Positions 4,928 through 56,873 of a DNA stretch of 64,000 nucleotides are shown one piece after another (within the stretch, counting starts at the first letter, position 1; each line of letters starts with the position of its first letter). The notes below the pieces were generated by a model. That model searched no databases. It saw only the letters and a list, made by a program, of their open reading frames with translations, and was not told the DNA's origin. Made by a program: the position numbers and the translations under genes. Origin of the DNA: a phage. The stretch lies in the NCBI GenBank assembly GCA_020241125.1, contig GCA_020241125.1_4708.1; one strand, written 5' to 3'.

Positions 4928-5555
4928 TGATACCTTCTATTAGTTGTACAGCAACTTCTTTTTCGGTGCTATAAAAGAACTTGCGATGGAACTGAACAAG
5001 AAGTTTTTCGAATTTACATTGAACGATCTTTTTGCGTTCGATATGACCCAGGGAGAGCAAAGCACCCATGCAACGTACCGCTTGTTCGAGAACTTGTTTC
5101 GCGGTATCGTGATCGTCCGGTAACGGTAAATCTTCCTCATCGTCTTTAGCGATAAGGCGTCTGATGATGTTATCGATACGTATCTCATCACCGTTAATAA
5201 AAGCCCCCTTCTCCCAGTCATCGAATCGTTGATGGATTCGACGTTGTAAGTTGGCCCTGTCTTCCATTAACTCTTTCAACTGGCTTTCTAAATGGGATAC
5301 GGTACGGCGGTCGGTTTCAGTGAAGTTTTCCGATTCTTTGTACCACCAATCATTACGCGATAGTAAATCGTTAACGCGCGAAATCGTCCGACGACACTCA
5401 CTAACAAGCCCGTCACCATTCGGTAGCTCTGTACCAAAATAGCATTTGTATTTATAACGCATAACACGGATTAAACGTTTCGCTAGAAAACCTTGCCTTT
5501 CCAGTTTCTTCTTCAGTTGTGTGTATTTCTCTTCTTTTGTTTCCATTAATTCCAT
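4914..5555 (-). CDS. hypothetical protein (213 aa)
   Basis: ORF track. Confidence 0.55.
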   Translation of the reverse strand: MELMETKEEKYTQLKKKLERQGFLAKRLIRVMRYKYKCYFGTELPNGDGLVSECRRTISRVNDLLSRNDWWYKESENFTETDRRTVSHLESQLKELMEDRANLQRRIHQRFDDWEKGAFINGDEIRIDNIIRRLIAKDDEEDLPLPDDHDTAKQVLEQAVRCMGALLSLGHIERKKIVQCKFEKLLVQFHRKFFYSTEKEVAVQLIEGINEVK

Positions 5556-5944
5556 GATGTTGTACCTCGTTCAGCAATCAGGAGAGTCGTGGTTGTGCTT
5601 TTCACTAATCTATTAAAGTCTTGATATATCCGCCTGAGGGATGATTTCAAATCACAATAACGGCTGAAATAAACCTTCAAGTCATCTTTTGTCACAGTCT
5701 CCGTATTTATTTTCGTAGAAACACCGAGATCGATAAACTCTTTTCTTAATTGGGATAATTCATCAAGAAGTCGATGATGGCTTAGATAAATAACAGATTT
5801 ATCGGATAACAACTCGCCGGTTATCCGGCTCTGGCGTTCATCGAAATATTGGAGCCGCCATTCAATTCGCTTACGTAATTTATCAAGTAAATCAACAAAA
5901 GCGGTATAGCTGTTAACGGCTAGGTTAACTTGACTCGTTATCAT
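5546..5944 (-). CDS. hypothetical protein (132 aa)
   Basis: ORF track. Confidence 0.5.
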   Translation of the reverse strand: MITSQVNLAVNSYTAFVDLLDKLRKRIEWRLQYFDERQSRITGELLSDKSVIYLSHHRLLDELSQLRKEFIDLGVSTKINTETVTKDDLKVYFSRYCDLKSSLRRIYQDFNRLVKSTTTTLLIAERGTTSWN

Positions 5945-6291
5945 TCCACTTTCTCCGTTATATGCTTTAAACTGTTACGTATACTTTTCAATCGATGGTT
6001 AAATCCGGAACGATAACATTTCCGTACATCCCGTGCTGATCGCGCTTTATTCGCCTGATTAAGCTGCTCATTCACCTGCGACGCTATACGTAAACGCTCT
6101 AATAAAGACCTCAACCGAACGACAACCAACGGCTGTTCTTTCACCTTCTCTAGTTTGAGTAAAGAGTCAATATGAAACTTTATTTCGATAATCTGATTCC
6201 TGTTTTTGCGGTACTGATGAATATACCAACATCGACGAAAATAGGCGATGTTTAGCATCGGGTAGATCCTTTTCAACGCTACCTCCAACAA
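5941..6291 (-). CDS. hypothetical protein (116 aa)
   Basis: ORF track; 4-nt overlap with neighbour. Confidence 0.5.
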   Translation of the reverse strand: MLEVALKRIYPMLNIAYFRRCWYIHQYRKNRNQIIEIKFHIDSLLKLEKVKEQPLVVVRLRSLLERLRIASQVNEQLNQANKARSARDVRKCYRSGFNHRLKSIRNSLKHITEKVE

Positions 6292-6476
6292 TACATCGGA
6301 TTAGGCGCTTTATGGTATTTATAGATACCTACTTTCTTCTGTCTGCCTTTACCCGGGCCTCGTTTAATACGTTTGTTATAAACACGATCCAAATATCGAT
6401 CAACGATAAATCGGGATAAATACACCGGATCGATATAAGCCAGGGTACCCGCTTCTGTTTCTTCGAGACATTGCAT
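6279..6476 (-). CDS. hypothetical small protein (65 aa)
   Basis: ORF track. Confidence 0.3.
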   Translation of the reverse strand: MQCLEETEAGTLAYIDPVYLSRFIVDRYLDRVYNKRIKRGPGKGRQKKVGIYKYHKAPNPMYCWR

Positions 6477-6502
6477 GCGTAACCTCTCTTTCCTCTAAAA
6501 AG

Positions 6503-6709
6503 TCAGTCCAACATAAGCCATGGCATCGCTTTCGCGATAGAATCCACCGCAGCATTTGCGATCCTTCGTTCGGTGGTTGGTACCACATGCGCCACGAACC
6601 GTTTTCCTTTATTGCAACCTTTCTTGTGTTTTCCTTTGACTAAACGAACACCAATCATGTCGTTGATAACATGATTTAGTATATGGCGCTGTAGAGAATT
6701 AATCATCAC
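6503..6709 (-). CDS. hypothetical small basic protein (68 aa)
   Basis: ORF track. Confidence 0.3.
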   Translation of the reverse strand: MMINSLQRHILNHVINDMIGVRLVKGKHKKGCNKGKRFVAHVVPTTERRIANAAVDSIAKAMPWLMLD

Positions 6710-8509: not shown

Positions 8510-9394
8510 TCAATAACGACCGTAGCGTTCCTCGAGCCGTTTTGGTTTTCTCAGAAGGCTATCTTTAAGTGGTACGACGTCGATATCAACACTCTCTGAG
8601 TAATAGCCGTTAGAACTACCATACCAACGGATAACAACACAACCCTTTGCAGTACGGATATGGTAAAATGTCCATTGTATACGTTCGCTGTAATAACCGT
8701 AGTTATCGGTTCTTTCCTCGGTTCTTTCTTCAGCACTGAGTATCTTTTCACCGATGATATCATTAATATCGCCGTCAATGTCTTCAAGATACACCTCTTC
8801 GCAGCAATCCTGCTGATGACAGAATTCGACAACGTTTCCATCACCACGATAGAAAAGAAGGGCGATACCGTTTCGTAATTGCTCGCTCGTTACATCAGAC
8901 ACACAATGCAAACTTTTATCGTCGGTAATCACCAAGACGTTGTTGATTACATGTCCGGCAAGCGCTCCGATCTTATTTACCGTGATAATCGGACGAACCG
9001 GTTCAGATTGAACGATAGGAATACGGACACAACCAATTAAAGCCATCCGTCCTTTCTTTGGTCTAACCGCAAGATACGGTGATTTTCTTGGGTGGTTATG
9101 TAGTCGTATTTCTACTTCGTTGAATTTAATCCCGTATGAACACAGAAAATAATTGAATAGTTTACGGAATTCCTCGGTTGCTTCTTGCAACGTGATGTTA
9201 TTTACTGTGAGTTTATGTCCCCTGAACACCCGGGTTAGATCGATAACATCCAGCGTTTTGAAATATATTTCCGTAAGGGGATGACCTGTGTATTCCAGGC
9301 AAGTAATTGTTCTTTGAACCACGATTTTAGGTTGTGCACCTTTAAAACGTTTCAGGTATTTAACACGATAGCGTGTATGATCTGATGTTAACAT
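8510..9394 (-). CDS. hypothetical protein (~294 aa; start moved to internal ATG with GGAGAGGAG RBS)
   Basis: ORF track 8510..9493; the longer N-terminus would overlap a terminator hairpin. Confidence 0.5.
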   Translation of the reverse strand: MLTSDHTRYRVKYLKRFKGAQPKIVVQRTITCLEYTGHPLTEIYFKTLDVIDLTRVFRGHKLTVNNITLQEATEEFRKLFNYFLCSYGIKFNEVEIRLHNHPRKSPYLAVRPKKGRMALIGCVRIPIVQSEPVRPIITVNKIGALAGHVINNVLVITDDKSLHCVSDVTSEQLRNGIALLFYRGDGNVVEFCHQQDCCEEVYLEDIDGDINDIIGEKILSAEERTEERTDNYGYYSERIQWTFYHIRTAKGCVVIRWYGSSNGYYSESVDIDVVPLKDSLLRKPKRLEERYGRY

Positions 9395-9467
9395 TTTAAT
9401 CTCCTCTCCCGACTTCAGAGAATTCTTAAAATCCGTTAGTTTTGATAGATAGGGTAAGACGGCATAA

Positions 9468-9490
9468 AAGCATCCCATTACGGGATGCTT
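9468..9490 (-). terminator. hairpin (AAGCATCCC/GGGATGCTT) with UUUUAUGCCG tail in minus sense
   Basis: Inverted repeat directly after stop of 9502..10050. Confidence 0.5.
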
Positions 9491-9501
9491 CATTAATCAG
9501 C

Positions 9502-19262: not shown

Positions 19263-19282
19263 TAAGTAATATAGCCGTGAAA
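19263..19282 (-). promoter_or_regulatory. conserved promoter-like motif, copy 1 (minus sense TTTCACGGCTATATTACTTA)
   Basis: One of four near-identical copies; TATATTAC core ~40 nt upstream of ATG at 19217. Confidence 0.5.
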
Positions 19283-21607: not shown

Positions 21608-23062
21608 ATGAAACTCAAACAAAGCTGGAAAGACGAACTTCTCGCGTTAGTAAACAGCAAAAACAGTTTACAACTGACATTAGACGATGTAAAATTTGAA
21701 CTAACGGCACCGGTAAGCGAAGTGCCTGGAACGGTCGTTGTTACAATCAAACCGAACGATAATAGTCGCTACTTTAACGAGCAGTCTCTGACCTACATCC
21801 GTCGAGACATCGCTAAAAACTTCACCGGGATCCCGTTACGGGTTATCGTTAAGCAAGATACCGCTGTAAGGGATATCATCAATACGATTGCTGAACGTTA
21901 CGGATTGGTATTTGACACAGCCGTCGACTTCCTCGAATCCGAGCTGAATAAACAAATTACGTTCGCAGACACCGGTATTAAAGACATTACGGTTCCGGTT
22001 GCAAACACGTCTTATGTTTGGGCGGGTAATCTTCAGTTCAATATTGCTAACGATACGTTAAGCTTGATTACTATCATCAAGAAAACCGATCTTACGAATC
22101 TGGTTTATCTGGATGGTGTTGAAGCTGACACATCTGGTTCGTTACTATTAGCAACCGCAGCACTTGTTAACGAACACGTAAATGAACCGATGGTTGAAAA
22201 CGAAGATATCGTTAATGAATTTATTAACGTTCTTAATACTCTAGCCAAATATGGTGACATAACCGGCGATGAATTAGATGCCGCCTTACAAGCGTACGAT
22301 GAAGCAGAAAACAGGAATAAAACCACGGTAATAACTCTTGGTGATATCCAGTGTGTTGCAACAGAAAAAGACGATTGGGAAATTGGACGTTTACGCGGTC
22401 AGATGGTTCTCGCGCTCAAATCCGATAAATACCCGGAGCCCGATAACACGTTCAGGTTGTTTACGAATGGTGGTGACGTATCGCTAACGTTAAACACAAT
22501 GAAAGATATAAGTATCGATTGGGGTGATGGGAATAAAGTAACGTTGGATGCTGAAGAAAGATACGCGCACCACACATACGCCGACAATAACCAGTACCAA
22601 ATCGAAATTGTGTCTCGTACGGACCCAGATGTGCTGCGACCAAATTATATTTCTGGGAGTGAGATAACCGAAGTAATTCACTGGGCTACTACTTCAACAA
22701 TAGCTCTGAATTTTGTTGGATGCGATAATTTAGCGACTGTTCCAGATGAGATCCCAACTTCGTGGACAACGTTGGACAGCATGTTTGAAAGTTGTACGAA
22801 TTTGAATGATCCGTCTATCTCTAACTGGAATACAAGTAACATCACATCAATGAATGGTATGTTCGGCGGATGCACTAAATTTAACCAACCTTTAGCTGCC
22901 TGGGATGTCAGCTCAGTAACTGACATTGGTGGTATGTTTAACGGATGCAACAGTTTTAACCAAGATTTAAGTGGGTGGCGATTACCGTCAGGAGTAACCC
23001 ACGACAATTACGATAGTGGTGCTTTCTCGTGGCAGACGGAACATAAACCGACGTTCCAGTAA
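21608..23062 (+). CDS. protein with C-terminal DUF285/BspA-type leucine-rich repeats (484 aa)
   Basis: C-terminal repeats NFVGCDNLATVPDEIPTSWTTLDSMFESCTNLNDPSISNWNTSNITSMNGMFGGCTKFNQPLAAWDVSSVTDIGGMFNGCNSFNQDLSGW match the FxxCxxF-NQDIS-xWDVSxVTxMxxMF pattern. Confidence 0.7.
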   Translation: MKLKQSWKDELLALVNSKNSLQLTLDDVKFELTAPVSEVPGTVVVTIKPNDNSRYFNEQSLTYIRRDIAKNFTGIPLRVIVKQDTAVRDIINTIAERYGLVFDTAVDFLESELNKQITFADTGIKDITVPVANTSYVWAGNLQFNIANDTLSLITIIKKTDLTNLVYLDGVEADTSGSLLLATAALVNEHVNEPMVENEDIVNEFINVLNTLAKYGDITGDELDAALQAYDEAENRNKTTVITLGDIQCVATEKDDWEIGRLRGQMVLALKSDKYPEPDNTFRLFTNGGDVSLTLNTMKDISIDWGDGNKVTLDAEERYAHHTYADNNQYQIEIVSRTDPDVLRPNYISGSEITEVIHWATTSTIALNFVGCDNLATVPDEIPTSWTTLDSMFESCTNLNDPSISNWNTSNITSMNGMFGGCTKFNQPLAAWDVSSVTDIGGMFNGCNSFNQDLSGWRLPSGVTHDNYDSGAFSWQTEHKPTFQ

Positions 23063-35617: not shown

Positions 35618-37204
35618 TTATTTTTTTCCTCTTAAATTTACTACGTGTTCATTTAATCGAACAACTAATTGCACAAGCTGCTGACGGATATCTGCTGGAC
35701 AAAGCATCAATCCTTTACGGTCAGCTGGGACTTTCTCAAGGATTTCCGGGCCTGCTGCTGAAACATCCCAGTCCCATTCACAAAACGCATCGGCCACCAT
35801 GTTAATACCGACAACCGGTAAAGTTGTACGTTCATCTTCATACATGGCGTGTGGATACAATTTATTGACAGTAATGATCTCCTGTGGTTTTAATTGGTGG
35901 ATAATCTGATAAACATCGTCGCGTTTGACCTGGATACCTACGGTCAGCGCGGCCAGTTGAGGAAAACCCCAATGGTCTAACAAACAAGCTGCGATCGCTA
36001 ACGCTTTTGCCTGATGCACGGCTTCAATCGGTGCCAGACTTCTCGCCGGAAGATGGCTATCAAGCAACCATTGCGCCAGTGCTCGGCATCCGCGGTTAAT
36101 TGGTTTTAACTCAACGGTGTCATCGTGTTTAGCGTACGTGTATCCGTCGTAACGTTTTGCGATACGCGCATACATGTCTTCAACTTTACCGTAAGGTGCC
36201 GTTTCGTCGACGTCGTGCAACACACGTTCCATCTGGGTAAGATACGCAATGTCGAGAATGAGTACACGTGGTGAACGTTTATCTTTCACCATCAACGCAT
36301 CAATCACGCCTTGACTGTCTTCATCTTGCGCATTCCCTCGCGGCGTTTTCTCGCGAATCGGTCCGCTGAAACGTCGTTCCGTACAAAGGTTATTCACATA
36401 GCTGAAGATCAGTGTTACTAGATGCGTACAACTCACTAACACCCCATCTTTAACGACAGGCTGTACAGCTTGGTCCAAGTCGCGTACGGCGAGACGGCGG
36501 ACGATGGCTTGTGAACGCAACCAGCCGGGCACTTTCTCCGTCGACATGTAATCCACGGTCATCGACAGCGTGATCTTTTTATCACCCGTCTGTGCGCGGA
36601 TATAGTCTTCCAGTCGGTCGTAAGCGGCGATATCATGAATGCGTGTTTTATACATCAACGACATAGCCACTTCTTCTTTACGAACCGTTCCGTACGTTTT
36701 CCCTGCGTCAATCAGAAACTCTGCCCAAATCGGCACCATCAGACGGACGTAGATCGCTAACGCCGTTAACTCAACGTAATCATTTCGTAAATAGGTTTTC
36801 TCAGGTATGTCATCCTCACCTAATGTTGTTTTCATGTCCGGTGGTAATTTTACCCAACCTGGGGTATTACACAATGCCAGAATCTCTTCGTACACAACCG
36901 GTTTGTAAATTTCACCAACAGCGCGACTCAACTCCTCCATTTGTTGTTGTGGAGCAATGTAGTTATCCATCGCTTCACGTGCTTTAACGAACCCTTCGAA
37001 GATGTCGTCAATTCGACGTGGGTTCTTTTGTTCTATCCAGGCGAGATACTTGTTAATCTCCCGCATCTGATTGCTAGCCATATCCCCATCAATCTTGATG
37101 TAACCCTGACCTGAAAATTCCACAGTACGTCCATCACGGTGTTTGATGAGATAGTGATCCAGCTTTTCTTTTCCTTGCGTCGTAATGACGGGCACTATGT
37201 GCAT
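35618..37204 (-). CDS. hypothetical protein (~528 aa; start at internal ATG with AAGAGG RBS)
   Basis: Track ORF extends to 37339, but the promoter-like motif and RBS support the ATG at 37204 (MHIVPVITTQ). Confidence 0.55.
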   Translation of the reverse strand: MHIVPVITTQGKEKLDHYLIKHRDGRTVEFSGQGYIKIDGDMASNQMREINKYLAWIEQKNPRRIDDIFEGFVKAREAMDNYIAPQQQMEELSRAVGEIYKPVVYEEILALCNTPGWVKLPPDMKTTLGEDDIPEKTYLRNDYVELTALAIYVRLMVPIWAEFLIDAGKTYGTVRKEEVAMSLMYKTRIHDIAAYDRLEDYIRAQTGDKKITLSMTVDYMSTEKVPGWLRSQAIVRRLAVRDLDQAVQPVVKDGVLVSCTHLVTLIFSYVNNLCTERRFSGPIREKTPRGNAQDEDSQGVIDALMVKDKRSPRVLILDIAYLTQMERVLHDVDETAPYGKVEDMYARIAKRYDGYTYAKHDDTVELKPINRGCRALAQWLLDSHLPARSLAPIEAVHQAKALAIAACLLDHWGFPQLAALTVGIQVKRDDVYQIIHQLKPQEIITVNKLYPHAMYEDERTTLPVVGINMVADAFCEWDWDVSAAGPEILEKVPADRKGLMLCPADIRQQLVQLVVRLNEHVVNLRGKK

Positions 37205-37257
37205 AACAACCTCTTTTCGCGGTTCCCTGTTAAAACGTCTTCTGTGACGTCTACCAC

Positions 37258-37280
37258 AAAGGTAATATAAGCGTGAATAA
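37258..37280 (-). promoter_or_regulatory. conserved promoter-like motif, copy 2 (minus sense TTATTCACGCTTATATTACCTTT)
   Basis: TATATTAC core ~58 nt upstream of ATG 37204. Confidence 0.5.
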
Positions 37281-37408
37281 TTTTGGATTCCGGCTGAGTT
37301 ATCGCTCAGCATGCAAGGCATCCCGCCGAAGCGAGACACCTTGCACTAACGGAAAATATTCGCGTTACCTTCTGAATCGAGGACTCAGAATGCGATGCTA
37401 AAGCATGA

Positions 37409-42540: not shown

Positions 42541-42560
42541 TAAGTAATATAGCCGTGAAA
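42541..42560 (-). promoter_or_regulatory. conserved promoter-like motif, copy 3 (minus sense TTTCACGGCTATATTACTTA)
   Basis: Identical over 20 nt to copy 1; ~85 nt upstream of ATG 42450. Confidence 0.5.
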
Positions 42561-43434: not shown

Positions 43435-43449
43435 CAGCCATTAAATGGA

Positions 43450-44088
43450 TTAACCTAATTTACCACCGGCGATATTGGTGAAATCTTCGCCATCAGGAAC
43501 TTGCAGTAGGATACGTGCCATGTCCCAGTTGGTTAATGTAATTGCTTTATCATCGATACTCAGTTCTGGTAGGTCGAGTTCATGATCATCAAACTCGTAG
43601 GAAATACTCCACGTTTCATCTGTTTTAGGATCGGTTATCAACACACCGTCTGTTACACGCATGTAGTCCGGGTGCAGTTCATTACTGAACGTGCCGAACG
43701 GATCGGTGTAACATTCAGCATACCCCTCGATCTGCTGACGCTGTGCCTTCGTACGTAATTCAGGGCACGCCATGATCAGTTGTCGAGATATGCCGTTTGC
43801 AGCTCGGAAATCCTCCACGGTGTTACATGGCATAACCACATCGTCATGGAAGATGTTCTCCGATTGTCTCAGCAAAGTCTTACGGAGTTCAGCATAGTTT
43901 ATCTGATTGAATGCGTCGAACGTTGCTAACGATTCAGCGTAAAAATGCTTTACGTGTTCGCTTGCGCCGCCGAGGCTATTCATCAGCTTGTGGCCGTACT
44001 CCATAAAGCTTTTATCGAGACCGGAGGACATTTCTCCGAACCTCAGTGCACGATAACTGTCTCGTCCACCTGTAAATATTTGCGCCAT
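43450..44088 (-). CDS. hypothetical protein (212 aa)
   Basis: AGGAGG RBS 9 nt upstream of ATG; follows beta' exon 2. Confidence 0.6.
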   Translation of the reverse strand: MAQIFTGGRDSYRALRFGEMSSGLDKSFMEYGHKLMNSLGGASEHVKHFYAESLATFDAFNQINYAELRKTLLRQSENIFHDDVVMPCNTVEDFRAANGISRQLIMACPELRTKAQRQQIEGYAECYTDPFGTFSNELHPDYMRVTDGVLITDPKTDETWSISYEFDDHELDLPELSIDDKAITLTNWDMARILLQVPDGEDFTNIAGGKLG

Positions 44089-44103
44089 TACAGGCGTCCT
44101 CCT

Positions 44104-44346
44104 TTAGCAATGGTTGTTAGTTGCTTCTATTTCGTCAAGATAAGGTTCTACGTCATCGCCCTCCACGAATTCGTTGAACCAACAGTCAATAGTGGAAATA
44201 ACCGGTGACTGGTGTTCACATTTCTTAGATACCTTAAAAGGTACGTTATTATCCATCATGCCGAGTTCGGGTCGAAAACGCCCGAAATGTTTCGCAGTCC
44301 AAATGTCTGGGACGATATGGTTGTTCATTGCGTCGCCGTCAAAGTC
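44104..44346 (-). CDS. RNA polymerase beta'-like N-terminal subunit, exon 2 (begins at the DFDGD catalytic motif)
   Basis: Reading frame opens 3 codons upstream (UGA) and encodes DFDGDAMNNH...; cf bacterial beta' NADFDGDQMAVH. No RBS; joins exon 1 to give GYNA|DFDGD. Confidence 0.6.
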   Translation of the reverse strand, partial: DFDGDAMNNHIVPDIWTAKHFGRFRPELGMMDNNVPFKVSKKCEHQSPVISTIDCWFNEFVEGDDVEPYLDEIEATNNHC

Positions 44347-44696
44347 CACATATCTTCAGTATGAATCGCTACTTCATACCCGCAGCATTACCTGCAGCTC
44401 CTGGTGTTACCAGGACGGAGAGATCATCTCATCACCCACGAAGGGTGTTCCGCGCTACCCTCAGCGAATTCGAGGGACATGATCGTTGAACCTTCCACCG
44501 ATAATCGGTGGCTAGGCTGCTGATTAAACATTGTACGTTGGGGTGGCATCCTGGTTCAGGACTGTCGTTGAAGCCTCCCAACATCCACTCACTTATTTCC
44601 GCCTTATCGGCTCCCATAAGGGCAGAGTGGCTTTAGCCCGTCTCAGCAATTCACGGAATTCAAGCTCTTCCTTTCAGAAGGCAGGGCCTCATCTGA
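44347..44696 (-). other. putative self-splicing intron (group I-like, 350 nt, no ORF) interrupting the beta' gene
   Basis: Exon 1 frame ends ...KGYNA and exon 2 starts DFDGD, restoring the YNADFDGD motif; 5' exon ends in U and insert ends in G; insert carries GGUUCAACGAUCAUGUC and AAGAUAU near its 3' end (resembling group I R and S elements) and several stem-loops (CCUGGUAACACCAGG). Confidence 0.55.
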
Positions 44697-45947
44697 AGCA
44701 TTGTATCCCTTAAGGATCATCACGCTTAACCCGATGGTATTATCCTGCGGATCGCGTTTAACCTTGGTGATTTCAAGACATTGGTTACTGCTTCGGTCAA
44801 GTGATGGGTTTCGAACAAAACCGCACACAATCCCATCGAACGGTGTATCAGCAATAAGCTCATCGTGCAGCTCACTCATCATCGGATGATAATTACGGAC
44901 ATGTTCCGCAACGAACGCACGTGCTGCTCTCGGTGAATAACCACGATGGAATAACTTGGATTGGATATGTTCTTTATTGGTTAAAGTAAATGGTGCGTAT
45001 GGGAAATGCAGATGATAATAACGATGGTTCGCTGTTATCGAACTGATTACAGTACGCGTGGTGAATGGATGTAATGTACCTAATATGTTTTTACGTGTGA
45101 TACCTTTCTTCTTACCGATGAACTCATCGAAAATCGCCGCATGGTATTGCAGTAGCTTCAATTGCACTTTCGCCATCCAGTTTTCTTTCTTTCTGGCGCT
45201 CAAAGGTGTTGTTGGGTGATAGATACTATTCAACGTACCGATAGCATCGATCGCACCTTCCATTTTGCTATCCGCATAACGACCGGTTGGCGTATTCTCG
45301 ATAACGAACATCATGGCCGCAGGAAAGCTGATATACTGACTGAAGAACTTATCACGATGGATACGGATGAATTCTCGTAGCGTATCAACTTTCTCCGTGT
45401 TCTTCGGTCCGCGTAACGTCGGTCCTTTATACAAGATCTCCATGATGCGATCGAAGTTCTGTATAAAACTATTTACACCGCGACGTATCCCGAATACATC
45501 GAATTGCTGCTCCAGATAGTTCTTGAGTTCGATGGGTCGTTTTACATTTGGACGGTAACTGGCATCAATGAGCCACGTCATCGTTTCAAAGCTTTTGATA
45601 TTCAACTCGCTTGCCAGCACGAGATGGACCAACGGGTTAATGAACGCATCAATTCCTTCAGGAACACGCGCCCAAACCGTCGAACGAATCTCTTGTTCTG
45701 CTGGATAGGTTACAACCGTTTTACAGTTCGGACACACCGTGCCGAGCAGCTCACCACGATTGTAGAAACCACAACCACATTGTGGCGTGATATCCAACGT
45801 ATCGCTGGAGTAAACACGGGTGATAAAACTGTTTAATTTCTTCTTCTCTTCGACGACTTTTGTATCGTAATCATTCAACAAAATCGGCGTGAAAGGAAGT
45901 TCTGCGAGCTGTCTATCGAAACTCACGATATCGAGCATGATGGCCAT
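44697..45947 (-). CDS. RNA polymerase beta'-like N-terminal subunit, exon 1 (417 aa to the GYNA junction)
   Basis: N-terminal zinc finger CGCGFYNRGELLGTVCPNCKTVV (cf beta' CxC...CxxC); TAGGAG RBS; unspliced frame continues 17 codons to a stop. Confidence 0.65.
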
Positions 45948-45989
45948 GGGGTATCTCCTACAAATGAAAAAGAACGTTAGGACGTATAA

Positions 45990-46013
45990 GGGAGGGAGGT
46001 TGCCCTCCCTCCC
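45990..46013 (-). terminator. hairpin GGGAGGGAGG-TTGC-CCTCCCTCCC after the 631-aa gene
   Basis: 10-bp perfect inverted repeat 27 nt after the stop; U-run further downstream. Confidence 0.55.
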
Positions 46014-46039
46014 GTCAGATTACATCGAACGTTCTTCCA

Positions 46040-47935
46040 TTAGAACAGGTTGAATGCCCCACCCATGTTGTTAACGCCAACATTCGGACGATCGCTACGT
46101 GCGTAGATGTTACCGGAGATGTTACCCAGACCACGAGCACGTGCTGCCATGTTACCACGAACAGCGGTACCTGCCAGATGCTGGATGTTCTCAGGACGGA
46201 TGGTGAAGCCAGCATCAGCAGCGGCCTCGATCAGCGCCTGCAGTGCTAACGGATCGAAGTCGTAACGCATTGCCCAGCCGGTTTGTTCCCAGCTACCAGA
46301 CAGAACACGATCAATGATTTCGTGACGAGCGACAACACGCTGAGACATCGTCATATCGGTACGGTCGAAGCTGTCTTCCCAAGCTTCTACGGTATCCGGG
46401 TTAGTGATGTTCATCATGTACAGATCGTCCATATCACGAATATCGTGACGGTGACCATCCTGGTGGTTATAATGACCCAGCGGGATACGGTTACCGGTAG
46501 CGTAGACCAGTGGTGCGCCGTACTGATATTTCTTGCTGAAGCAACCCAGGGTAGTATCATCGAAGGCACGGAAGAGTGCTTTGTAACCTTCGGAGATTTC
46601 CCGGACTTCACCTTCAACTTTGCCCGTATAGATCTTCTCAGCCGCCGGGATCATACGCAGCAGCCAGCTGTATTCGCCTTCTTCCGGTACGTCGATAGAA
46701 ATCAGCAGAGACGGATACAGTACCTGTTGCAGGAACTTGTAAATCTGCTCGTTGGTTTGAGTAGACAGATCCAGCGGTGCGGTAACTTCCGGATCCAGTA
46801 CCATCGCCAGAGCACCCGGGTTATGCGGACCAATACCACGAGCAGCGTTGCTGATTAAAGACTGTGCCCACGCCATACCGCTGTTCAGCGTAGCGATGGT
46901 GCCAATCAGACCCAACACGAAAGTGTTCGGCGTGAACGCATCCAGCTCCAGCGGGTAAGCGCTGGTCATCACGTAACGCGGTTGGTATTGTACAGTCGGC
47001 GGTACCGGATAACCGTTAACCAGAACAGGGCCTTGGTTGAAGGTCGGGTTCTGCGGGCTGTAGGTCAGGTCAATGTAACCGGTGGTTGCGACCAGACGCT
47101 GCTGACTATCGTAATCGCTCATCGCTTGACGGATGCGGTTAGAGATAGTTACAGTGATGTCAGAACGCACAGGGTTACCAACAATATCGCTGTCCTGCAT
47201 ACCGCTGGTGTTGTACTGAACGCTGCTGATTGGCTGATCGCTTGCCATCATGCCCAGGTTGAACTGCGGCAGACCCAGTTTATCGCCGAGACGGATTTCG
47301 ATCGCGGTTTGGATTGCGTTATCTGCAGCAGACAGCAGGGTGGTTGCCAGATGCGCAGATTCAGCGGTGATTTCATTGGTCACCACAGCCAGACCAGCGA
47401 TACGAGCAGTACCATTAGACTTACCACCGATAGCTGCATACATTGCCGCCATGACTTCGTTGATGAACGTACCGTTCAGGTTATCAACCCAGGTACGCGG
47501 CACCAGAATGTTACCATGCGGGCCTTGTTCTTCACGACGCGGCAGCGGAGCCAAACCGGCAACCAGTGGAAGCACATAACCGAAGAAGTGGTTATGGTCA
47601 CCAACTTTTGCACCGCTCATAACAACCAGGGTCGGATACGGTACACTGTATTGGTTAGGATCGACGGTCACCATGATGAAGTCGTCTTTGAATCCTTTAT
47701 CTTCCAGTTCTTTTTCCATCAGACGACGGAGATTCAGTACCTGCTCGGAGCCAGTATTACGGCTAATACGACGGCTCAGTGTACGGTTGATCGTACGCAT
47801 CGTATGAGTTACTTTAGGCTGGCCAGCAAAATCTGCAGCGGTTTCCAGCGCCTCATCAGCACGTTGTGCGGTGCGGGTTTCAGCTGCACGAATTTCTACA
47901 TTATCGTTACCGTTATTACGTACGTCTAAGCCCAT
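46040..47935 (-). CDS. chmA: candidate chimallin / phage-nucleus shell protein (631 aa); major capsid protein not excluded
   Basis: Large ORF with strongly optimal codon usage, AAGAGGAA RBS, promoter-like motif 70 nt upstream, directly upstream of the beta'-N gene (order as recalled for phiKZ gp54-gp55), ~8 kb from PhuZ. No motif confirmation possible by eye. Confidence 0.45.
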   Translation of the reverse strand: MGLDVRNNGNDNVEIRAAETRTAQRADEALETAADFAGQPKVTHTMRTINRTLSRRISRNTGSEQVLNLRRLMEKELEDKGFKDDFIMVTVDPNQYSVPYPTLVVMSGAKVGDHNHFFGYVLPLVAGLAPLPRREEQGPHGNILVPRTWVDNLNGTFINEVMAAMYAAIGGKSNGTARIAGLAVVTNEITAESAHLATTLLSAADNAIQTAIEIRLGDKLGLPQFNLGMMASDQPISSVQYNTSGMQDSDIVGNPVRSDITVTISNRIRQAMSDYDSQQRLVATTGYIDLTYSPQNPTFNQGPVLVNGYPVPPTVQYQPRYVMTSAYPLELDAFTPNTFVLGLIGTIATLNSGMAWAQSLISNAARGIGPHNPGALAMVLDPEVTAPLDLSTQTNEQIYKFLQQVLYPSLLISIDVPEEGEYSWLLRMIPAAEKIYTGKVEGEVREISEGYKALFRAFDDTTLGCFSKKYQYGAPLVYATGNRIPLGHYNHQDGHRHDIRDMDDLYMMNITNPDTVEAWEDSFDRTDMTMSQRVVARHEIIDRVLSGSWEQTGWAMRYDFDPLALQALIEAAADAGFTIRPENIQHLAGTAVRGNMAARARGLGNISGNIYARSDRPNVGVNNMGGAFNLF

Positions 47936-48004
47936 TTGGGATTCCTCTTTTCTTAAACTTTATTAAATGACGTCATTGAATCAGCTTCTACTCGCTCATT
48001 CACC

Positions 48005-48024
48005 TAGGTAATATAACCCTGAAA
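48005..48024 (-). promoter_or_regulatory. conserved promoter-like motif, copy 4 (minus sense TTTCAGGGTTATATTACCTA)
   Basis: TATATTAC core ~73 nt upstream of ATG 47935. Confidence 0.5.
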
Positions 48025-48189
48025 TTTTTTTCAATATTGGTGTAACCACATTGAACGATATAAACCCCTAGGCGAACGCTGCCGAGAAGCAACATTCTTT
48101 CTACATATAATCAGGATATGTCTGTAAACTTTTACTTCTCTTATTGAGAGTAATGTCATATCCGTTTACCATCTTCTTACGGAGTTCGT

Positions 48190-49284
48190 ATGTTTCGTGT
48201 TTTAAATAACCTCCCGCGAACATCATCGGGTGTGCAACCCGTCCCTCAGAAAGACTATCTAATACGCGAAGTTCAAAGAAACCTACAGACAATCCAGAAC
48301 CACTATCAAGGTTTTACCTTCGCGGTTCAGAGCGATCACATCCTTGCGTTGCTGCTCGCACAGCTCCCTATGAGATACGACATCTCAGTACAAACTTACT
48401 ACGACATGATTCTCGATCTTACTCCAGAATTGGGTAATCGTGTTAAGTTGACAACATCAAGATACGCGGGTAAGTTATTCGACGGTGCTTTCTATCCGGG
48501 ATTGCACGAAGCTATTATCGCAACCGGTGAAAGTCGTCTTATTTCACGTGACGTTCTTGACAACTGGCGTAATTGGTCACCGGTTAGAATCGTGACGCAC
48601 CCATACGCAAATCTTCGTTACATTCCTCTTCACCGAAAGCCGGTTGAAGAAGGACGAGGTTTTGCGGTCATTATGGTTGATGTACCTTTATTAGCGCTAC
48701 AGTATCGAATGTGGTCTTTGGTCATGGGTCATAACGTCGACGGCAAATGGGTGGTTAAAGAACCGGTTACAAGCTTCCTTGCGAGTTTTCCGTTGGTTAA
48801 CGCATTATACTCACACAACGATGTTGTTATACGCAATCGTTGTTTGTGGGTATCTCCGGCTAAGAATCCACTCAAATCACCAATTTACGTTAACGACCTT
48901 GATAACGTATTCAGTCAAGTCGTTCTGTCCGTACAGCATCATTTATTACGAAGAAGACGAAGCTACACCGACATGCTTAAACAGATACCGAGTTTATACG
49001 GGGATCAGTACCAAGCAACCCGAATGGGTTACACCGTCGATCTTCGGCAAACGCGATGGGCAAGGGATCTGGGTTGTCTGTCATTATGGCAACAACTCGT
49101 CACGTTGCAAAACGTATCTGAAAGCGTCGGGTTCAGCAGTCAAATCGATAATGACCTGTACCGTGCTGCCGACCGGAGTCTAAAAGAAGGTAACTGGGAG
49201 TCCTCTCCGTTACCTGGCGATTTAAGACGTGAAGTTATCGCACAGGTTGCCGACCTCTTAAAAATTCTTCCCGCTGGTGCATAA
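48190..49284 (+). CDS. hypothetical protein (364 aa)
   Basis: Plus ORF with GGAG RBS; divergent from the 631-aa gene. Confidence 0.55.
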   Translation: MFRVLNNLPRTSSGVQPVPQKDYLIREVQRNLQTIQNHYQGFTFAVQSDHILALLLAQLPMRYDISVQTYYDMILDLTPELGNRVKLTTSRYAGKLFDGAFYPGLHEAIIATGESRLISRDVLDNWRNWSPVRIVTHPYANLRYIPLHRKPVEEGRGFAVIMVDVPLLALQYRMWSLVMGHNVDGKWVVKEPVTSFLASFPLVNALYSHNDVVIRNRCLWVSPAKNPLKSPIYVNDLDNVFSQVVLSVQHHLLRRRRSYTDMLKQIPSLYGDQYQATRMGYTVDLRQTRWARDLGCLSLWQQLVTLQNVSESVGFSSQIDNDLYRAADRSLKEGNWESSPLPGDLRREVIAQVADLLKILPAGA

Positions 49285-49350: not shown

Positions 49351-51504
49351 TTACTCTGCGGTTTCTTGCTTCGGTAAATAACTTGCTGCGATGTCTTGGG
49401 CTAACAATGTATTGTTTTTATTCGAGATGAAAATACCATAACTTTCCATTAACGCGTAATACGAACGCACGAGCGTAGAGATCAATCGACGAATATCCAT
49501 ACCTTGAATAAAGATATCAGGAAGCCCGGAGGCTTCGATCACCGGTAATGGTATCGTTAAGTTGCTTATCGTTTTCTTATCGTTACGTACAATCCAATCA
49601 CGGAAACGTTGTTGTAACCCTTTATCCTCCCAGGAATCAATCCAATCGTTAAGAAGCGTTTTGTTCTTCGTCGCCAACGGCACACGAACCCCAACATAGG
49701 GTGGTTCCTGGCAATGGCCGTACGATTGAGCAAACACCTCTTCCCACATATCGTAAGACTGTTTCGTTACTGCAACATGCGGTTTCACTTTAACACGTGT
49801 TAAGAAATCAGGATCACCACGTTTCATGGACTCAACGATTTCGTTTTCTAACGAGATAATATCGTCAAGAACCAATCGAATGCTGATCTTCTCGTTACGT
49901 AACAGCTTATCCATGATACCACACATCATGCGTTCAACACGTTTGACGATCATTTTTGGTGCTGACGCATCGCGCATAACCGGACCTTTCAATTCCAGCT
50001 TCGGTGGATTGATAGGAACCCCTTCACGCATGGTCATGTAACCGTAATAGTTTTTACCCATCGAGGTTAACGACAGAATCAAGAACATATATTCGTTCTT
50101 CATTTCCATCACGTACATATGCTCTTTCGCCACACCGATATTACCAGAACACATCGCCATCAGATGAACCGTAATCTGCGTAACCAGATAGATAAGCGTG
50201 TTTGCTAAGCGCGTCGAAACTGGATTGATCTCCATATTTCCAAATCGCCACTGAACCCACTCCTGGCAGGTAAACACCGTCGAGTCGGTATCAGACAACA
50301 CACCCACTTCACGGATTGCTGATGGGAAAGCATAAACACCAGCCGGTTGGTTCTCGGTACGCCAGAACGCCATAATCAAATCAGCATAGCTTTGAATACG
50401 CTGTAGCATTAATTTTGTCGTTGCTGCAGTAAGACGATAACCAAGCTCATTTCCTTTTTCTAGCGCTACGTAAATCGCTTCCCCATTCAAGAACTCCGTA
50501 CATTGTGCTGTAATCCAAGCGACCGTGTTGTTATCCATGGAAGCAATAATGGCTTTAGCCTCTTCCATCGTTTCAACAGGTTCGGATGCCAGCTCGCATA
50601 ACGAATCAAGAAAATCTCGAACAAATTCAGGATTAAGCTCACGTAACGAGTACAGGTTATTGCTATACATGTAGCAGGCGCGTTCCAGTGGGGTTAAACC
50701 GGTAATTAACTCCCGGATAGTCAGTTCTTTCTCTGGGTCGAAAGTATATCGATGCAAGCATTTCGATACGTTAGCCCAAACCTCTTCCGGCGTAGGGTAA
50801 TGTAGTTTGTATTTTACCATTACCTGTTCAATGGCTTTACGATCGCTGTTGCGGACAATACTCACGATGTTTTCAATTGCGATATCACAATCGTAATAAT
50901 GGAAATTGCCCGCAAGGAAGCGTTCGTTGTTCGCATTGGCTGAACCTGAAGCACAGCGACACGTTGTCGTTAAACTTGGATGCGCAATTGGATTATAAAA
51001 AGGGTTAAACTTGGACGCCTGGGTTCCTGACAAACTGTTGTTATCTAACTTGGTGTTGGTTTGTCGTTTATCGTGTAACTCAGCTTCATCTTTACGTCCG
51101 TGTGCTTGCGCTATCGACATTTGTTTCTTTTGTTTCTTACGCAACTTACCGTTTTCAACCGCAAAGTCGCTTAGCACACTGGAACGTGTTTCACGTGGAT
51201 AACAGTTAGCCCACACCGGCGTGATAATTAAATTATTTTCTTTAATATCATTGAAGTATTGGCTGAACTTGATGACTTCTTTTTCTCGATTTCCTTCGGT
51301 GCGCTGTGTTAATACAAGGCAGTCGGGATCAACCATCCCGTATTTTCCACCAGGACGAACCGTATCAAGGACAAACTGCAACGCTTCCTGCTGTGATATC
51401 CCACGCATGCGCATTAAGAACAGGGTATAATCCTGTACCGCTTCTTTGGTCATATCCAACGTACGGCCATATCCGTTTTCATCGTAAAAGAACGGATTTT
51501 CCAT
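49351..51504 (-). CDS. hypothetical protein (717 aa); candidate divergent family-B-like DNA polymerase catalytic module
   Basis: VGVLSDTDSTVF resembles polymerase motif C (YGDTDS); downstream GKNYYGYM resembles the KxY motif; motifs A and B not convincingly found. Confidence 0.55.
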   Translation of the reverse strand: MENPFFYDENGYGRTLDMTKEAVQDYTLFLMRMRGISQQEALQFVLDTVRPGGKYGMVDPDCLVLTQRTEGNREKEVIKFSQYFNDIKENNLIITPVWANCYPRETRSSVLSDFAVENGKLRKKQKKQMSIAQAHGRKDEAELHDKRQTNTKLDNNSLSGTQASKFNPFYNPIAHPSLTTTCRCASGSANANNERFLAGNFHYYDCDIAIENIVSIVRNSDRKAIEQVMVKYKLHYPTPEEVWANVSKCLHRYTFDPEKELTIRELITGLTPLERACYMYSNNLYSLRELNPEFVRDFLDSLCELASEPVETMEEAKAIIASMDNNTVAWITAQCTEFLNGEAIYVALEKGNELGYRLTAATTKLMLQRIQSYADLIMAFWRTENQPAGVYAFPSAIREVGVLSDTDSTVFTCQEWVQWRFGNMEINPVSTRLANTLIYLVTQITVHLMAMCSGNIGVAKEHMYVMEMKNEYMFLILSLTSMGKNYYGYMTMREGVPINPPKLELKGPVMRDASAPKMIVKRVERMMCGIMDKLLRNEKISIRLVLDDIISLENEIVESMKRGDPDFLTRVKVKPHVAVTKQSYDMWEEVFAQSYGHCQEPPYVGVRVPLATKNKTLLNDWIDSWEDKGLQQRFRDWIVRNDKKTISNLTIPLPVIEASGLPDIFIQGMDIRRLISTLVRSYYALMESYGIFISNKNNTLLAQDIAASYLPKQETAE

Positions 51505-55892: not shown

Positions 55893-56873
55893 TTAGAAAA
55901 GCAAGAAACCGCTATTCTTCGCTTCCGCTACAGTTTCGTCACCAACTTTCGGCGCTTGTTGACGTGCGTTACGATGTTCGATGTAACGTTTCGCTTCGTC
56001 CGCGATCTGTTTGATAATACCCCCTAAACGATCGGTACTTAAAACAAACGACGTCGCTTCACGAATTGGGCTGCTTTCAGGCACAAAACCATCGCAGCTG
56101 TAAATAGCGCTAACGCCCATGACTTTTGTCGCGTCTTTCGGATAAAGCGTACAGAAAGCAATCGGGCTATCGTTCTCTTTCGTCCAATCGTATCCCATGA
56201 ACGTATTCAGTTCGGTGATCGTTGGTTCCAAACCGGTAACACGTGGATGGTTTAAGAAGTTTTCCAGGTCGGCGCTGTCAAGACGACGGTTCTCGCCAGA
56301 AAACAGAACACAAAGCTGGCTAATAACAACCTGCACGTCCAGGTTGACATCCTGCTCCGATTTCCCATTTTCGCCATTCATGTGATAGCTAACAATCACT
56401 GGACGTTTCAACCCTTCTGCAGCCGCCATCAGTCCTTTGAAGGTGCGATCGGCGTTGATCGTTTGACGCTCGTCATCGAACGAGGCAACGATGCAACACA
56501 CCACACGTTCACCACGTTCCAGCAGGTTAGCAACCAACGCAGGACCTGCAACAGAACCTGAACCACCGCTCAGACTAAAGACCACGATATTAAATTTACC
56601 TGGCGTATGCTTATTCAGAATACCCGGGATTTGTGAACAGATCAGTTCAGCGTTCTCATCACGCTTCTTACCAGAACCGTCTAACTCACGACCGGCTACA
56701 TCTTTAAAGATGTAAATATGATCGTCACCCAGTGTGCTATCGCGTAGGTTAGCGCGGCTGGTATCGACATACGTCATGCTGTGTAATCCTTTCGCGACTT
56801 CGCCTTCAAATGCTGAGCCGATTTCGCCACCACAACCACCGACAGCCCAAATATGTACTTGGTTCTCTTGCAT
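55893..56873 (-). CDS. phuZ: phage tubulin PhuZ-like (tubulin/FtsZ-fold GTPase, 326 aa)
   Basis: N-terminal VHIWAVGGCGGEIGSAF (cf tubulin IHIQAGQCGNQIG) and VVFSLSGGSGSVAGP (tubulin signature GGGTGSG); size matches PhuZ. Confidence 0.8.
   Translation of the reverse strand: MQENQVHIWAVGGCGGEIGSAFEGEVAKGLHSMTYVDTSRANLRDSTLGDDHIYIFKDVAGRELDGSGKKRDENAELICSQIPGILNKHTPGKFNIVVFSLSGGSGSVAGPALVANLLERGERVVCCIVASFDDERQTINADRTFKGLMAAAEGLKRPVIVSYHMNGENGKSEQDVNLDVQVVISQLCVLFSGENRRLDSADLENFLNHPRVTGLEPTITELNTFMGYDWTKENDSPIAFCTLYPKDATKVMGVSAIYSCDGFVPESSPIREATSFVLSTDRLGGIIKQIADEAKRYIEHRNARQQAPKVGDETVAEAKNSGFLLF

Follow-up and report, generated by a model that had tools for sequence, protein, structure and literature searches.

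A chimallin gene and its flanking elements on a Goslar-like jumbo phage contig from a bacterial isolate assembly

Chimallins and the phage nucleus

The closest described relative of the protein considered here is the chimallin (ChmA) of phage Goslar, gp189 (YP_009820873.1; RefSeq HOV27_gp246; PDB 7SQT, 7SQU and 7SQV), a 631-aa protein whose protomer structure has been solved at 2.3 Å (PMC9365700). Protomers of chimallin, about 70 kDa each, associate into a square lattice by means of an N-terminal segment and two C-terminal segments (NTS, CTS1 and CTS2), and Goslar ChmA has been seen to form the same lattice in situ and cubes of about 22 nm in vitro (PMC9365700). The 201phi2-1 chimallin, gp105, is likewise 631 aa long and can be superposed on the Goslar protomer with an r.m.s.d. 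of 1.8 Å; removal of its segments, located at residues 48-61, 590-611 and 622-631, abolishes assembly (PMC9365700). The second C-terminal segment, CTS2, differs between the two types, being shorter in the Goslar type and making other contacts than in the 201phi2-1/phiPA3 type (PMC9365700). When ChmA is knocked down, the plaquing of Goslar drops by a factor of at least 10,000 and infection stalls at the stage of the early vesicle, showing that ChmA is essential; in the vesicle stage of such knockdown infections the virion RNA polymerase (RNAP) still makes chmA mRNA (PMC10541120). Goslar chmA transcripts belong to the early program expressed from the vesicle, and the chmA start site has been mapped from RNA-seq at 5 min and drawn in a panel that begins 91 nt upstream of the ATG (PMC10541120).

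Genomic accounts complement this picture. A core genome has been proposed for the Chimalliviridae (10.1101/2023.02.24.529968), and the Goslar-like phages are known almost exclusively from bacterial assemblies, with 59 of 60 encoding a chimallin more than 90% similar to that of Goslar (10.1101/2024.12.31.630880). In phiKZ, the gp54/gp55/gp56 region shows the order shell protein followed by a beta'-like subunit of the non-virion RNAP (nvRNAP), and the beta' gene is broken at its NADFDGD motif by an element that carries an HNH gene.

Identity, setting and evolution of chmA

We identify the gene at 46040..47935 on the minus strand of the window (the whole 64,000-nt stretch of phage contig GCA_020241125.1_4708.1, assembly GCA_020241125.1, that was analyzed) as chmA, encoding the nucleus-like shell protein of a Goslar-like jumbo phage (genus Goslarvirus, Chimalliviridae; Enterobacteriaceae hosts), and regard this identification as close to certain. 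The coding sequence runs from an ATG start to a TAA stop and specifies 631 aa, equal in length to Goslar ChmA and 201phi2-1 gp105, so that the initial annotation, which had considered the size to lie in the chimallin range, was right on this point. A phmmer search of PDB sequences aligned residues 1-631 with residues 4-634 of Goslar chimallin (7SQT_A) at 1413 bits, with 623 of the 631 residues the same (98.7%), and further recovered phiPA3 PhuN (8FNE; E = 6.5e-21), 201phi2-1 chimallin (7SQQ; E = 2.6e-10) and 8IGG. The protein also matched the Pfam family PF25677 (Chimallin_Phikzvirus) at 92.3 bits (gathering cutoff 27), with the match spanning profile positions 12-591 of 627, as well as PHROG 4795, "nuclear shell protein" (E = 4.9e-52). 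What had been offered as a candidate phage-nucleus shell protein is hence borne out as the major shell protein, chimallin, and nothing speaks against this identification.

Beyond these matches, megablast returned Escherichia phage Goslar only (97.7% over 2.3 kb), and tblastn recovered homologues from 102 jumbo-phage records, among them phiKZ gp54, phiPA3 gp53 and RAY, with identities of 98.7% to Goslar and 22-31% to the chimallins of 100 other jumbo-phage records. The relationship to 201phi2-1 gp105 and phiPA3 gp53 is one of family, with residues 62-596/622 of ChmA aligned at approximately 19-23% identity, whereas phiKZ gp54 shows 24.9% identity over 60% of the protein. Neither the family nor its structure is new, and a protein 98.7% identical to this one has already been described. 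With Goslar it shares its length, genomic position, promoter-like element, ribosome-binding site and hairpin-bearing spacer; it differs by eight substitutions, and in its source, a bacterial isolate assembly whose phage contig lists the protein as hypothetical. The substitutions fall in two patches (Y76E, T80K, R81G, F88M and A90T; Y455F, V461T and L474A), while residues 1-75 and 475-631 are unchanged, and the ends of the protein that hold NTS, CTS1 and CTS2 are the same as in Goslar ChmA, in which these docking segments have been resolved. Given its 98.7% identity to the 2.3-Å structure, the protein is predicted to adopt the two-domain protomer fold, with an N-terminal domain and an acetyltransferase-like C-terminal domain; a full-length match of this kind to a solved structure is stronger evidence of fold than a fold search on a predicted model.

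The window is collinear with positions 125,464-188,963 of the Goslar genome at 93-98% DNA identity with a few indels, and 6,896 bp of it match, at 100% identity, the 238-kb contig ABDDKD010000007.1 from an NCBI isolate assembly (GCA_020395325.1), in which the protein is likewise labeled "hypothetical". The exact ChmA protein occurs on 25 contigs of up to 241 kb and belongs to a 249-member cluster whose named members come from assemblies of E. coli or Salmonella and are each called "hypothetical protein", in keeping with what has been reported of the Goslar-like phages (10.1101/2024.12.31.630880); a megablast search against complete E. coli genomes gave no match. Around chmA lie split multisubunit RNAPs, a PhuZ tubulin and a divergent DNA polymerase, that is, the setting of the Chimalliviridae core genome. 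Immediately downstream, after 92 nt, is an ORF at 44643..45947 (minus strand) that is homologous to phiKZ gp55 (7OGP_A; E = 1.3e-60), the N-terminal part of nvRNAP beta' (beta'-N). The phiKZ arrangement of shell gp54 followed by gp55, to which the initial annotation had referred, does exist in that phage, and the adjoining gene is the expected homologue; the ORF itself, as discussed below, is best read as exon 1 of an intron-split gene and not as a complete gene. On the other side are a divergently transcribed gene of unknown function (48190..49284, plus strand) and a divergent family-B DNA polymerase recognized by Pfam search (49351..51504, minus strand). The PhuZ gene (55893..56873, minus strand; 9PM9_C, E = 1.6e-219; phiKZ gp39, E = 8.7e-29) is 7,958 bp from the chmA start, in agreement with the distance of about 8 kb noted earlier; its match to the Pfam Tubulin family is weak and below the gathering score, and its Goslar counterpart is annotated 'tubulin PhuZ'.

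Comparison with Goslar reveals that chmA is under purifying selection. The gene is 97.3% identical at the DNA level and has 45 changed codons, 37 of them synonymous and 8 non-synonymous, giving a pN/pS of 0.10. Two long antisense ORFs within the gene (46283..46858 and 46982..47929, plus strand) were rejected as non-coding, with pN/pS values of 2.1 and 1.2, respectively. A set of 16 Goslar-like ChmA sequences shows termini that hardly vary, and replacements are gathered in patches at residues 38-40, 76-90, 167-177, 436-447 and 455-474; within the 76-90 patch five residues are linked in one haplotype, and four different residues occur at position 474. The pN of ChmA (0.0087) is also the highest of the four genes compared with Goslar, the others ranging from 0 to 0.0024. 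These patches might reflect diversifying selection on exposed shell surfaces, imposed either by host immunity directed against the nucleus or by co-evolution with phage proteins that dock on the shell, a reading that we consider doubtful; alternatively, alleles may have recombined neutrally into mosaics.

The composition of chmA sets it apart from its surroundings. Among the 49 ORFs of at least 150 aa it has the highest GC content (0.525; mean 0.459, sd 0.021; whole window 0.455) and the lowest effective number of codons (34.9, the next being 43.4). Its codon adaptation index (CAI), computed with E. coli highly expressed genes as reference, is 0.609 against 0.286 +/- 0.052 in the other ORFs of the window; absolute CAI values, which depend on the Sharp & Li 1987 w-table, are approximate, while the effective number of codons is independent of that table. 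Goslar ChmA has a CAI of 0.61, lower than that of the major capsid protein (0.74) and higher than that of the tail sheath (0.46). Such codon usage is the signature of a very abundant protein. A Shine-Dalgarno sequence, AGAGGA (47943..47948, minus strand), can be read from the sequence with a 7-nt spacer to the ATG. The optimal codon usage, the elevated GC content and the strong ribosome-binding site to which the initial annotation had pointed are thus all present, and its description of the gene as early and highly expressed agrees with the published Goslar data, namely the early chmA transcripts and the 5-min start site (PMC10541120).

Both the size and the codon bias of this ORF could also be accounted for by an HK97-fold major capsid protein, which had been named earlier as the alternative to chimallin. 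The high codon adaptation, a feature shared with the Goslar capsid gene, is the single point in favor of a capsid; on the other hand, the full-length match is to chimallin, searches of PDB, Pfam and PHROGs returned neither an HK97-fold capsid protein nor any other family, and the Goslar major head protein, gp041, is encoded elsewhere, at 43439-45661, some 80 kb from the part of that genome with which the window is collinear. We therefore reject the capsid alternative, the probability of which is negligible. A second possibility is that the protein is a chimallin homologue without being the principal shell protein, whether as a paralogue that has diverged, as a minor constituent of the shell or as the product of a gene copy decaying in a defective phage, as might be entertained for a gene from a phage contig in a bacterial isolate assembly, rather than a plaque-purified phage, and with amino-acid changes clustered in patches. 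Against this, the gene occupies the orthologous position in a fully collinear genome, is of equal length with no frameshift or stop and with the low pN/pS given above, and has kept its codon bias, ribosome-binding site and flanking regulatory DNA; moreover, the exact protein recurs on the 25 contigs mentioned above, and no second chimallin-like ORF was seen among the scanned proteins of the window. We accordingly hold this possibility to be very remote, and favor the principal shell protein as the product of the gene.

Flanking elements and expression of chmA

The spacers on either side of chmA are strongly conserved. The 254-nt upstream spacer has 2 differences relative to Goslar, against approximately 9% at synonymous sites nearby, and the 92-nt spacer that follows the gene has none. 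Within the upstream spacer is a promoter-like element of about 40 nt (47996..48039, minus strand), comprising an A-rich tract, TTCAGGGT, a TATATTAC core at 48015..48008 and CTAGGTGA, and the chmA copy of this element is the same in Goslar. The initial annotation had noted a promoter-like motif about 70 nt upstream of the gene; the core is indeed there, ending 73 nt before the ATG (positions -80 to -73), but the 8-mer by itself is not enriched in the window (4 found against 2.9 expected). Enrichment emerges with the extended element: the 16-mer TTCACGGCTATATTAC, allowing up to 3 mismatches, has 5 matches against 0.52 expected, a count that none of 100 shuffled sequences reached. The four TATATTAC sites of the window share about 40 nt, consisting of the A-rich tract, TTCAC/GGnY, TATATTAC and CTnnGTGA, and all four lie in intergenic spacers, in the same orientation as the downstream gene and 48-93 nt before its start codon. 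A weight-matrix scan of the whole Goslar genome recovered 12 copies with TATATTAC/TACATTAC cores, all on the minus strand and scoring 29-60 bits, with none between 14 and 29 bits and a maximum of 11.5 in shuffled sequence. A scan for generic sigma-70 promoter and terminator patterns gave background levels only.

Jumbo phages that encode their own RNAPs are each known to possess a distinct AT-rich early-promoter motif of about 10 nt near -10 (reviewed in PMC7598289), and the core described here falls within the 91-nt upstream stretch of the published Goslar chmA start-site panel (PMC10541120). In light of these precedents, and of the enrichment, the upstream co-oriented positions and the conservation of the extended element, we propose that the injected virion RNAP probably uses it as an early promoter. 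It could instead be a different cis element, such as a middle-class promoter of the nvRNAP, a regulator-binding site or a transcript-processing signal. This reading draws on the scarcity of the element, of which there are 12 copies in the 237-kb Goslar genome as against 175 genes detected at 5 min (PMC10541120), and on its architecture, in that it includes TTCACGG upstream of the core and, 4-5 nt downstream of it, a conserved GTGA, and is much longer than the motif of about 10 nt seen in other jumbo phages (PMC7598289). Yet the uniformly intergenic, co-oriented placement of the window copies upstream of start codons, the AT-richness of the core, as in the early promoters of RNAP-encoding phages, and the early expression of chmA from a start-site region that includes the core all make it the less likely of the two, though a possible one. 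If the element is an early promoter, its copies may represent one subclass of such promoters or head long operons. No promoter consensus for Goslar was found in the RNA-seq paper, in related papers or in a full-text search for the motif string, nor did we find a description of this sharply defined element with 12 copies per genome, which should be of modest interest to specialists.

Just past the chmA stop codon is an extended hairpin (45967..46037, minus strand), with the core GGGAGGGAGG-GCAA-CCUCCCUCCC, an outer stem formed by AGAACGUU/AACGUUCU and a following U-run. Its folding energy is -42.1 kcal/mol (z = -5.45), and none of 200 shuffled sequences folds as well. Its U-tract is interrupted, and it is absent from the calls of a simple terminator pattern scan. 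The structure looks like a terminator or an mRNA-stabilizing or processing structure, and would terminate or stabilize the chmA transcript. As a separate start site has been reported for the beta' gene downstream (PMC10541120), it could instead be a processing site or a 5'-UTR element.

By analogy with the characterized chimallins, the virion RNAP, injected with the genome, would transcribe chmA and other early genes while the genome is held in the early-infection vesicle, and the resulting mRNA would be translated in bulk by host ribosomes, with which the host-adapted codon usage and the strong ribosome-binding site are consistent. The protomers of approximately 70 kDa would then self-assemble into a square lattice one protein thick, the N-terminal and the two C-terminal segments docking on neighbors, and the resulting shell would surround the replicating phage DNA and keep out host nucleases, while being positioned and rotated by PhuZ filaments. 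The experiments behind this scheme were carried out with Goslar ChmA, 98.7% identical to the present protein, and with 201phi2-1 gp105, and lattice assembly and essentiality are taken from the literature. Early abundant expression and shell assembly, which experiments have established for Goslar ChmA, are represented here by proxies, namely the codon bias, the ribosome-binding site and the promoter-like element, and may be expected of this protein by analogy.

The interrupted beta' gene and the wider significance of the locus

The catalytic DxDGD motif was not found in the beta'-N ORF at 44643..45947, and the similarity of this ORF to phiKZ gp55 exon 1 ends at ...LKGYNA417. The sequence DFDGD is encoded 350 nt beyond, in a separate ORF at 44104..44349 (minus strand). 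These features led us to reject the view that the beta'-N ORF is an intron-less allele relative to Goslar, and suggest that it is exon 1 of an intron-split gene. Exon 1 would occupy 44697..45947 (minus strand) and end at ...LKGYNA, the ORF running 17 codons into the intron; the intervening sequence, a 350-nt, ORF-less, group I-like intron that we term 'B', would extend over 44347..44696 (minus strand), between NA and DFDGD; and exon 2, at 44104..44346 (minus strand), would contribute DFDGDAMNN..., 80 aa and a stop. The boundaries read ...AAUGCU / ...GUG / GACUUUGAC, with the 5' exon ending in U and the intron in G. Joining 44697 to 44346 restores the frame as GYNA-DFDGD, and the 497-aa product predicted from this join can be aligned with spliced phiKZ gp55 (7OGP_A) through NADFDGD, raising the score from 208.8 to 255.3 bits.

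Folding of five intron-B copies from related contigs with RNAalifold yielded 93 consensus pairs, of which 27 show compensatory double changes; the consensus contains long-range P3/P4-like helices. There are also sequence elements that may resemble the P, Q, R and S elements of group I introns. No Rfam family matched anywhere in the window at gathering thresholds, and a search of 44000-44850 at E <= 10 returned noise only, with no match to the group I family (RF00028), whereas the neighboring intron A of Goslar scores 46.9 bits with the Rfam group I model.

The target of about 30 nt at NADFDGD differs among related phages with identical ChmA. The window and the related contig L010 have intron B between NA and DFDGD; L013 has this insertion too, and a further B-like copy behind DFDGDA sets off a mini-exon of 18 nt. 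In Goslar the F codon is split by a 1,440-nt group I intron that Rfam recognizes and that includes an HNH gene, and B follows DFDGDA; L009, L011 and L012 have the Goslar arrangement without the HNH gene (379 nt). In L014 another insertion follows ...LKG and encodes a 323-aa ORF with a faint NUMOD-like Pfam match. The site of interruption is thus shared with phiKZ, but the HNH endonuclease gene found at this spot in phiKZ is replaced in the window by the 350-nt ORF-less intron.

The identification of chmA adds no new chimallin biology; it does provide a confident function for a protein that is publicly listed as "hypothetical protein [Escherichia coli O157]" or as its Salmonella equivalent. The hot-spot for introns at the catalytic NADFDGD of the nvRNAP beta' gene, which includes a type missed by Rfam, is of modest specialist interest and bears on the competition between introns and homing endonucleases of co-infecting jumbo phages. 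Finally, the identity of ChmA marks the source of this DNA as a nucleus-forming Goslar-like jumbo phage residing in a bacterial isolate assembly, a class lately reported as "persistent virulent phages".

Organization of the split beta'-N gene and its insertion hot-spot

The gene for the beta'-like subunit of the non-virion RNA polymerase (beta'-N; window 44104..45947, minus strand), which follows chmA on the same strand, consists of two exons and an intervening sequence. Exon 1 (45947..44697) ends in ...GYNA, exon 2 (44346..44104) starts with DFDGD, and between them lies a structured 350-nt intervening sequence (44696..44347), here termed B; the listed 434-aa ORF is exon 1 plus 17 read-through codons. 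Alignment of the predicted spliced product with its phiKZ homologue gp55 runs through the NADFDGD motif. An Rfam search of the 350-nt intervening sequence returned no detection. Covariation analysis revealed 27 compensatory pairs in it, which supports a conserved structure for this group I-like element.

Comparison of this locus in the related contigs with identical ChmA (L009-L014, around 5700-6650) and in Goslar (NC_048170.1, 167847-169660) indicates that the approximately 30 nt coding for NADFDGD are a hot-spot for putative introns: in these Goslar-like phages, no fewer than four sites of insertion and three types of element can be distinguished. B itself interrupts the motif as NA|DFDGD, and a B-like element is found at DFDGDA|MNN. 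Inside the F codon sits an RF00028-type intron that carries an HNH gene in some cases and lacks it in others; another element follows ...LKG| and carries an ORF with a faint NUMOD-like match in Pfam. In one contig (L013), two B-type copies are separated by a mini-exon of 18 nt. The metagenome contig L009 has about 155 bp extra shortly before beta' exon 1 ends (about 5723-5893), in which some 70 nt of exon sequence recur (window-segment positions 5669-5738 correspond to L009 5824-5893); this may represent a further insertion or a duplication at the hot-spot. The RefSeq record of Goslar gives separate gene entries to exon 1 of beta' (gp247) and to the final exon (gp185, named 'hypothetical protein').

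Promoter-like elements and other comparisons with Goslar

Further copies of the approximately 40-nt promoter-like element seen upstream of chmA occur in the window at 19266-19273, 37262-37269 and 42544-42551, and in Goslar at 2567, 15067, 43266, 49732, 86705, 113797, 142800, 160791, 166069, 172978, 201944 and 226695. Every copy lies on the minus strand, and those in the window are intergenic and upstream of genes. The core is TATATTAC, replaced by TACATTAC in four Goslar copies, and the upstream half comes in two sub-types, TAATCCAACATTTTTCACGGC and TATTGAAAAAAA...AGG. The GTG-start ORF listed at 35618..37339 (minus strand, 573 aa) is probably over-extended at its start: given that its Goslar orthologue, gp175, has 528 aa, we place the start at the ATG at ~37204, which is preceded by AAGAGG. 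The copy at 37262-37269 would then fall in a spacer.

Window segments 1-660, 5545-5940, 8510-9404 and 22156-23029 have no collinear Goslar counterpart. These include an insertion of about 895 bp that takes in the greater part of an ORF (8510..9493, minus strand; 327 aa) matching DUF7448 (E = 1.4e-23), and the divergent C-terminal part of a DUF285/DUF7941 repeat protein (21608..23062).

Conservation and variation at chmA

The naming of the Goslar chimallin is a trap: the protein called 'gp189' in papers (YP_009820873.1) bears the RefSeq locus tag HOV27_gp246, and HOV27_gp189 is a small unrelated gene (NC_048170.1, 234664-235215).

Both spacers flanking chmA are much better conserved relative to Goslar (0/92 nt differing in 45948..46039 and 2/254 nt in 47936..48189) than the synonymous sites of the adjoining genes (pS 0.07-0.11). 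This implies that, besides the promoter core and the hairpin just 3' of the chmA stop, they contain additional non-coding sequence with a putative function.

Variable positions in ChmA, compared across 16 Goslar-like sequences, are clustered in patches (residues 38-40, 76-90, 167-177, 436-447 and 455-474), with a linked block of changes at residues 76/80/81/88/90 and A, L, S or Q at position 474. Synonymous changes, too, are concentrated there, at codons 74-97 and 453-475, which suggests mosaicism of chmA alleles arising through recombination.
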